Shown: positions 24,540 through 25,375 of the stretch, one piece after another
Layout: each line of letters begins with the position of its first letter
Numbering within the stretch: the stretch's first letter is position 1
NCBI RefSeq assembly: GCF_024700885.2
Contig: NZ_CP117016.1
Source of the DNA: Escherichia coli
GTDB taxonomy: Bacteria > Pseudomonadota > Gammaproteobacteria > Enterobacterales > Enterobacteriaceae
Reading direction: 5' to 3' (one strand)
Length of the DNA: 64,000 bases
Made by a program: the position numbers and the translations under genes
Notes under the pieces: generated by a model
Told to the model about the DNA's origin: nothing
What the model saw: the letters and a program-made list of their open reading frames with translations, nothing else
Database searches by the model: none

Positions 24540-24908
24540 ATGTCGGACACACTCCCCGGAACAACGCTTCCCGACGACAACAAAGACCGCTCCTGGTGGG
24601 GGCTGCCCTGCACCGTGACGCCCTGTTTCGGCGCCCGTCTGGTGCAGGAGGGTAACCGGTTGCATTAACTTGCAGACCGCGCCGGTATCAGAGGCCGGTT
24701 CAGCGATGCGGATGCGAACCATCTGGACCAGGCCTTTCCGCTGCTGATGAAACAACTGGAACTCATGTTCACCAGCAGTGAACTGAATCCCCACCGTCAG
24801 AATACCGTCACGCTGTATGCTAAAGGGCTGACCTGCCATGCGGACACCCTCGGCAGCTGTGGTTACGTTTATCTTGCTGTTTATCCGACGCCCGAAACGA
24901 AACAGTAA
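24540..24908 (+). pseudogene. cbeA: CbeA/YeeU-family antitoxin gene with in-frame TAA at codon 43 (24666-24668)
   Basis: MSDTLPGTTLPDDNKDRSWWGLPCTVTPCFGARLVQEGNRLH then TAA, and the same frame continues LADRAGIRG...[11 protein letters not shown] to the normal stop. Confidence 0.7.
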
Positions 24909-24997
24909 ATCACCGGAATAACCTTCTGCTCCGGCCTGGTGCTTTCACCACGCCACTTTTCCATTTTTCATCTCTGCATATCAGGAAAATCTTCAGT

Positions 24998-25375
24998 GTG
25001 AAAACATTACCCGACACACACGTACGGGAGGCATCGCGCTGCCCGTCTCCCGTCACCATCTGGCAGACACTGCTGTCCCGACTACTGGGCCAGCATTACG
25101 GCCTTACGCTGAATGACACACCGTTCGCCGATGAACGTGTGATTGAGCAGCATATTGAAGCTGGCATTTCACTGTGTGATGCGGTGAACTTTCTCGTTGA
25201 AAAATACGCACTGGTACGTACCGACCAGCCGGGATTCAGCGCCTGTACCCGCTCTCAGTTAATAAACAGTATTGATATTCTCCGGGCTCGCAGGGCAACC
25301 GGCCTGATGACCCGCGATAACTACAGAACGGTAAATAACATTACCCAGGGGAAGCATCCGGAGGCGAAACAATGA
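24998..25375 (+). CDS. cbtA: CbtA-family toxin (YeeV/YkfI/YpjF)
   Basis: 125 aa; [81 protein letters not shown] matches CbtA. Confidence 0.85.

Follow-up and report, generated by a model that had tools for sequence, protein, structure and literature searches.

The antitoxin gene of the pheV genomic island of Escherichia coli MLI114 is best explained as a genuine, non-functional pseudogene with an imported stop codon, next to an intact toxin gene that the cell tolerates. A probability of roughly 75% was given to this explanation as a whole. MLI114 comes from human stool in Mali. The window (the whole stretch of DNA analyzed, 64,000 nucleotides) maps to the reverse strand of the chromosome, NZ_CP117013.1, with 100% identity over 12.8 kb, and positions are those of the window unless another sequence is named. 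The antitoxin and toxin genes belong to a CP4-type module with the order DUF932, antirestriction, RadC-like JAB, DUF987/yeeT-like, an extra gene, antitoxin, toxin, DUF5983/yeeW-like, DUF957, and DUF4942. The module is located at the far end of the pheV island, adjoining the kps capsule genes. Modules of the yeeV-yeeU type close several tRNA-linked islands in E. coli (PMC3551546). The features of the module referred to below were:

21693-22511, plus strand: DUF932 gene, conserved upstream part of the CP4-type module
22566-23051, plus strand: antirestriction gene, conserved upstream part of the CP4-type module
23067-23543, plus strand: RadC-like JAB gene, conserved upstream part of the CP4-type module
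23606-23827, plus strand: DUF987/yeeT-like gene, conserved upstream part of the CP4-type module
23846-24529, plus strand: upstream gene, a pseudogene named by PGAP as "antitoxin of toxin-antitoxin stability system", no Pfam match
24540-24908, plus strand: yeeU/cbeA-family type IV antitoxin gene of 122 codons, broken at codon 43 and now a pseudogene
24591, plus strand: C>T giving Pro18Ser in the antitoxin frame, absent from every other allele examined
24632-24674, plus strand: probable minimal recombination (gene-conversion) patch, outer bounds 24592-24715
24666-24668, plus strand: in-frame TAA in place of Tyr43, by C>A at 24668 (TAC in the closest intact alleles)
24909-24997, plus strand: antitoxin-toxin spacer of 89 nt, rich in C and poor in G, with C/G reaching 3 in 78-nt windows
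24998-25375, plus strand: intact CbtA-family toxin gene, 125 aa, GTG start, PGAP protein WP_016231184.1
25372-25860, plus strand: DUF5983 (yeeW-like) gene, its ATG overlapping the toxin stop (ATGA), with GGAGG 7 nt upstream

The antitoxin frame was translated from the ATG at 24540. It reads MSDTLPGTTLPDDNKDRSWWGLPCTVTPCFGARLVQEGNRLH, then TAA at codon 43, then LADRAGIRGRF and onward to the normal stop at 24906-24908. With Tyr43 restored the product matched Pfam PF06154 (CbeA_antitoxin) over residues 19-117, covering model positions 2-100 of 101 with an E value of 6e-52. Translation and domain match together bear out the original prediction of a cbeA/yeeU-like frame that runs through GNRLH to a TAA and continues as LADRAGIRG to its normal stop. 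The restored antitoxin also aligned to two solved structures, 2H28 (E. coli YeeU, E value 1.5e-72) and 2INW (a Shigella homologue), both at about 1e-72. Tyrosine occupies the codon-43 position in both structures, as had been expected, but the codon expected there, TAT, was not the one found in the closest intact relatives, which have TAC. The RefSeq/PGAP annotation of the MLI114 chromosome lists the gene (NL414_RS04445) as a pseudogene with an internal stop. NCBIfam HMMs gave no match for the antitoxin, the toxin, the upstream gene, or DUF5983, and Pfam was used instead. Nothing specific to the TAA allele was found in the literature on yeeU pseudogenes.

The frame is not that of a working antitoxin, with TAA at codon 43 and the next in-frame start only at Met70. 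As judged from frame and domain the gene is a member of the PF06154 family by descent and not a functional member. The stop-shortened product has 42 residues and retains 24 of the approximately 99 domain residues. No antitoxin would therefore be made from this locus, as the 42-residue peptide falls too far short of the domain. Protection of the cell by a fragment, either the 42-aa N-terminal peptide or a 53-aa C-terminal product starting at Met70 (24747), is scarcely credible. Open reading frames are present for both pieces. However, the domain spans residues 19-117, so that each piece is only part of it (53 aa is about half), and neither 24747 nor 24765 is preceded by a Shine-Dalgarno sequence. 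Between the stop and Met70 the frame offers no ATG, GTG, or TTG. The idea that the C-terminal part is made from an internal start was accordingly dropped.

The TAA was searched for in a reference set of 5426 complete genomes. The 61 bases around it were 100% identical in 115 of these. A 47-mer probe (24648-24694), which is specific to TAA as TAC alleles cannot supply the 28-base exact megablast seed, matched the same number, 115/5426 (2.1%), at 115 places with one per genome and none on plasmids. The other carriers that were read are also annotated "internal stop" by PGAP. A sequencing error at this codon had been named as the result that would undo the prediction. The TAA and two linked variants instead make up the haplotype of 114 other complete genomes. 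On these matches the matter is effectively closed, and the TAA appears to be an established natural allele.

The carriers fell into three groups. The first comprises 28 genomes, among them IAI39, CE10, strain 2/0, and AR_0017, in which an intact cbtA encoding WP_000854824.1 directly follows the TAA antitoxin. Each of these 28 genomes has two or more TA-like places. The second group is made up of about 85 genomes in which a remnant lies beside dsdC or csc genes at argW and the toxin and everything downstream are deleted. The third is MLI114, a single mosaic. All TAA-type alleles other than that of MLI114 share a 1-nt insertion near codon 6-7 which shifts the canonical start to another frame, and the PGAP annotation of these pseudogenes begins at a GTG farther upstream. 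With both the insertion and the TAA in common, the TAA-type alleles look like an older, multiply damaged lineage that is decaying and is carried along with the islands. The island of strain 2/0 (839735-880585), which includes the TAA antitoxin, the intact toxin, and ireA, ends at ISEc10 beside glnP. For a CP4-type module such an insertion site, with no tRNA gene at the end of the island, is unusual.

The window was aligned with YDC107, the leuX-island paralogue of MLI114, and eight other loci. The closest relatives of the TA locus are 26 records at 99.3% identity, mostly ST131 and including YDC107. ST131-type relatives such as YDC107 have TAC and encode the intact antitoxin WP_016231183.1. Between 23400 and 26570 the window and YDC107 differ at few sites, five of which are clustered in 24576-24674. 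Apart from the patch region, the approximately 3 kb compared differ at 24366, 24490, and 24998 only. The segment 24592-24715 is identical to the TAA-type alleles of IAI39, 2/0, AR_0017, DA33135, and WP5. Outside this segment the window has the YDC107-type state wherever YDC107 and the TAA types differ. The donor-type states are 24632C, 24668A, and 24674A, against G, C, and C in YDC107, and they are flanked by recipient-type informative sites at 24581-24584 and from 24716-24717 onward. Two of the three donor-type variants, 24632C and 24674A, are silent. The mosaic, taken as a 161-mer, is unique to MLI114. The comparison to homologous islands that accompanied the original prediction as a check thus returned a TAA shared with 114 other genomes in flanks of ST131 type.

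Three linked donor-type variants within 43 bp, with recipient-type flanks, argue for a short recombination or gene-conversion tract. The stop was most likely imported by such a tract of at least 43 bp and at most about 125 bp, and not made by a fresh point mutation. The tract would have come from an older yeeU pseudogene allele, present in about 2% of complete E. coli genomes, and entered an intact antitoxin gene in a locus otherwise of ST131 type. The variant 24576G, which also differs from YDC107, is found in another intact pheV-type allele. As YDC107-type sites lie between 24576 and 24632, it is not in the same continuous tract.

A de novo change of TAC to TAA by one C>A in the MLI114 lineage, with the neighboring variants as unrelated polymorphisms, was considered quite improbable. 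One transversion suffices for the stop, no donor copy is present in MLI114, and 24576G and 24591T show that one tract does not account for every local variant. Against this, 24632C, 24668A, and 24674A all match one allele of 114 other genomes within 43 bp, in a setting where the flanking 3 kb or so holds only three other differences from YDC107. An assembly or polishing artefact, in which the patch came from mis-mapped paralogue reads or contaminating DNA and the real gene is intact, was judged very unlikely. In its favor, the patch roughly matches a short read in length and falls where paralogues of the gene are most alike, frameshifts are annotated in several genes of the window, and the mosaic is known from a single assembly. 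However, the only place in MLI114 matched by the TAA-specific 47-mer is the pheV-island antitoxin locus itself, and no other TAA-type copy is present on the chromosome or plasmids, which argues against a patch written in by mis-mapped short reads from a paralogue at the polishing step. TAC and 24674C were found in the leuX-island copy, the one other paralogue that was read.

Import by a short tract thus remains the preferred origin of the stop. Since no TAA-type copy is left in MLI114, the donor was either external DNA or a copy that has since been lost. The likely island sites of MLI114 were read for a TAA donor or paralogues, and a module was found only at leuX. No island is present at ssrA, selC is empty, pheU has an integrase remnant only, and a T6SS island occupies aspV. 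Elsewhere in the pheV island two T6SS clusters and no further module were found. At thrW (4105675-4117731) there is a P4-like satellite with a retron St85 reverse transcriptase and effector and no CP4-type TA module. The argW site of MLI114 holds only a DUF4942 remnant, and the same island type in strain H8 carries a TAA-type yeeU remnant. At least one ST131 genome is among the TAA carriers. The argW remnant and this carrier together make a genome that held both the recipient and the donor type plausible.

Bypass of the stop was also weighed. Read-through, or an ochre-suppressor tRNA inserting for example tyrosine at UAA, would give some full-length antitoxin. This is highly implausible, although beyond the TAA the frame stays open and conserved as far as its usual end, and stronger termination contexts exist than UAA with a following C. 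A recent patch accounts for the open frame, as the flanks are identical to intact alleles. In addition the older carriers have the frame-breaking insertion, and UAA is the least leaky stop in E. coli. No Rfam family was found in the TA region and no tRNA in the window. With the least leaky stop and neither a recoding signal nor an RNA family, the suggestion that the stop is read through gained no support.

The module contains further damaged genes. The upstream gene at 23846-24529 has TGA at 23987-23989 where the intact WP_000094916.1 of strain 2/0 has Cys48 (TGT), and this lesion is common to the window and ST131 YDC107. In the window alone the natural stop of this gene is changed from TGA to TGC (24488-24490), which extends the frame by 13 codons. 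Selenocysteine-type recoding of the internal TGA was tried as an explanation and rejected, as the hairpin fold was no better than that of shuffled sequence (z +0.7). The DUF4942 gene, intact in YDC107, is split by the IS21-family element ISEc10 into an N-part at 26166-26579 and a C-part at 28983-29144, both on the plus strand. The genes of the element are istA (26671-28166, annotated as frameshifted) and istB (28163-28918), also on the plus strand.

Four genes of the island are annotated as frameshifted, namely tssK (1-404), a zinc-ribbon protein gene (4495-4907), a Hha-family fragment (6775-6914), and istA (26671-28166). These could reflect decay or residual indel errors in the assembly, and they affect how much weight a lone variant, for example the toxin's GTG start, can bear. 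Three matches in the window reached the Rfam gathering score. These were IS102 RNA (12571-12807, plus strand) just upstream of an Ag43-family autotransporter gene (12826-15672), JUMPstart (46243-46281, minus strand) in the capsule region, and the C0719 sRNA (61056-61277, plus strand) near sslE. The part of the pheV island upstream of window position 1 (862505-912504 of the MLI114 chromosome) holds two type VI secretion clusters, one with Tle1-EAEC/Tli1-EAEC and the other with aaiC. This gene content suggests that MLI114 is of enteroaggregative type.

The toxin gene is full length, as had been predicted. Its product matched Pfam PF06755 (CbtA_toxin) over positions 1-112 of 112 with an E value of 3e-62, and its start is GTG rather than ATG. 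Residue 65 is phenylalanine and residue 15 is cysteine. Phe65 is needed for FtsZ binding by CbtA, YpjF, and YkfI, and Cys15 is the natural residue of YpjF and YkfI (PMC5624674). With Phe65 present and a cysteine normal for YpjF/YkfI at residue 15, the toxin looks competent. The GTG start context was found in MLI114 alone among the 5426 genomes, a count that rests on a probe unable to seed on ATG alleles, as identity bands alone confuse GTG with ATG plus another SNP. The GTG start and Pro18Ser are each a single variant in one assembly. An AGGA lies 11 nt upstream of the toxin start. A promoter and terminator scan of 23500-25500 gave matches at chance level, with none in the antitoxin-toxin spacer. 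The ATGA overlap and the GGAGG suggest that DUF5983 is translationally coupled to the toxin. DUF5983 is a recurrent partner of CbtA in a genomic survey (PMC10790755). Its role as an alternative neutralizing partner would be hypothetical, and this reading was set aside.

The locus was compared to the CbtA/CbeA (YeeV/YeeU) system of the cryptic prophage CP4-44 in E. coli K-12. Both have a PF06755 toxin with a PF06154 antitoxin upstream and a spacer of 88-89 nt, the cbeA-cbtA spacer of K-12 being 88 nt (PMC5371832). Both also have DUF932, antirestriction, RadC-like, and yeeT-like genes upstream and a yeeW-like gene downstream. The solved YeeU (2H28) and the window antitoxin share about 88% identity. 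Unlike CP4-44, the window has an antitoxin broken at codon 43, a GTG toxin start, a toxin N-terminus that is YpjF-like (Cys15), and an extra pseudogene between the yeeT-like gene and the antitoxin, and its site is the pheV island. The pheV-island module of YDC107 (O25b:H4) is 99.3% identical to the window over the 836-bp TA locus and shares the toxin protein WP_016231184.1, the downstream genes, and the TGA-interrupted upstream gene. YDC107 differs in having TAC at codon 43 and an ATG toxin start, and in lacking both the 24632C/24674A patch and Pro18Ser. The TAA-type alleles of IAI39, CE10, 2/0, and AR_0017 are identical to the window over at least 24592-24715, TAA included. Over the rest of the locus about 9% of sites separate the TAA-type alleles from the window, and these alleles have the 1-nt insertion near codon 6-7 that is absent from the window. 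Where a toxin accompanies them it is a different allele, WP_000854824.1, with an ATG start in place of GTG.

Four reasons why an intact toxin is tolerated can be drawn from published work and the local anatomy. The first is that toxins of the CbtA family would be transcribed at a low level and harmful only on over-expression. The three K-12 operons have a low mRNA level, neither toxin nor antitoxin autoregulates its operon, and growth of K-12 is unaffected when all three antitoxin genes are absent (PMC5371832). The K-12 ΔcbeA ΔyafW ΔyfjZ strain resembles MLI114 in having a toxin without its cognate antitoxin in a viable cell (PMC5371832). MLI114 differs from the K-12 mutants in that the loss is natural, by an imported nonsense codon and not a deletion, and in that at least one paralogous antitoxin remains. 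Orphan TA components are abundant in E. coli (PMC10790755).

The second reason is that antitoxins of the CbtA/CbeA family act in trans, so that the leuX-island paralogue of MLI114 would cross-neutralize the pheV toxin. YafW, YfjZ, and CbeA each neutralize YkfI, YpjF, and CbtA (Wen et al. 2017, PMC5371832), as shown with over-expressed K-12 proteins. CbeA is reported to bundle FtsZ/MreB rather than bind the toxin (Masuda et al. 2012, summarized in PMC5371832). As the antitoxin is thought to act on FtsZ/MreB and not on the toxin, action in trans would be natural. The leuX island (4591454-4592286 of the MLI114 chromosome) has an intact YeeU-family antitoxin, WP_001295723.1, with a CbtA-family toxin. 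This antitoxin is identical to the restored window antitoxin at 105 of 122 residues (86%), and the mutual similarity of the K-12 cross-protecting paralogues is no higher. Beyond the loci read in MLI114, the 161-nt antitoxin probe had a third matching place and the 836-nt probe two further ones.

The third reason is the approximately 330 nt of untranslated C-rich RNA before the toxin gene, which would invite Rho-dependent polarity. After the stop C is well above G in this stretch, with C/G of 1.4-3.0 in 78-nt windows. On base composition, the premature stop should bring about such polarity. The fourth reason is that GTG in place of ATG would lower translation of the toxin. Initiation at GTG in E. 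coli is generally several-fold weaker than at ATG, and toxin output may be reduced further by this unique start. The original prediction had offered, as one outcome, a toxin silenced or neutralized another way. This is the outcome favored here, based on the K-12 data (PMC5371832) and the intact leuX paralogue.

A compensated orphan toxin was judged unlikely, though with an appreciable chance of being right. In that scenario the antitoxin was lost, a change of ATG to GTG was then selected because it lowers translation, and the toxin was kept for a useful function of its own. The GTG, unique among the 5426 genomes, is one of the three non-patch differences from YDC107 in about 3 kb, and the identical intact toxin WP_000854824.1 stands beside the TAA allele in 28 genomes. 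In K-12, loss of ypjF or of all three toxins cut survival of oxidative stress (PMC5371832). However, the scenario rests on one SNP in one genome, which would look the same under drift. The toxin has been lost altogether in about 85 TAA carriers, and K-12 tolerates the loss of all three antitoxins with no compensation (PMC5371832). A wider version, in which the TAA allele is spreading between paralogous CP4-type modules by gene conversion while the toxins are retained (re-tuned by GTG in MLI114) and serve the cell with no cognate antitoxin, was given little credence. If it were true, a natural TA pair would have been turned into a stand-alone, trans-buffered regulator of cell division.

Tolerance of the toxin with a genuinely broken antitoxin is accordingly retained as the preferred explanation. 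A broken antitoxin beside an intact toxin of this family is expected to be harmless and an ordinary case, because the toxin would be weakly expressed and the genome has a spare antitoxin. The gene family, the type IV mechanism, the dispensability of the antitoxin, and cross-protection are already published, and the pseudogene is already in RefSeq. The present analysis adds that the stop is a real shared allele, that it likely arrived in a short patch, and that the toxin has a unique GTG start, which is a small hint of compensation. These are small refinements and not a new system. The patch suggests that a nonsense lesion can move between paralogous TA modules by short-patch recombination. Through such movement, pseudogenes in multi-copy island modules that appear independent may share one origin. 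Surveys of orphan toxins should expect the CbtA/CbeA family to tolerate the loss of the antitoxin.
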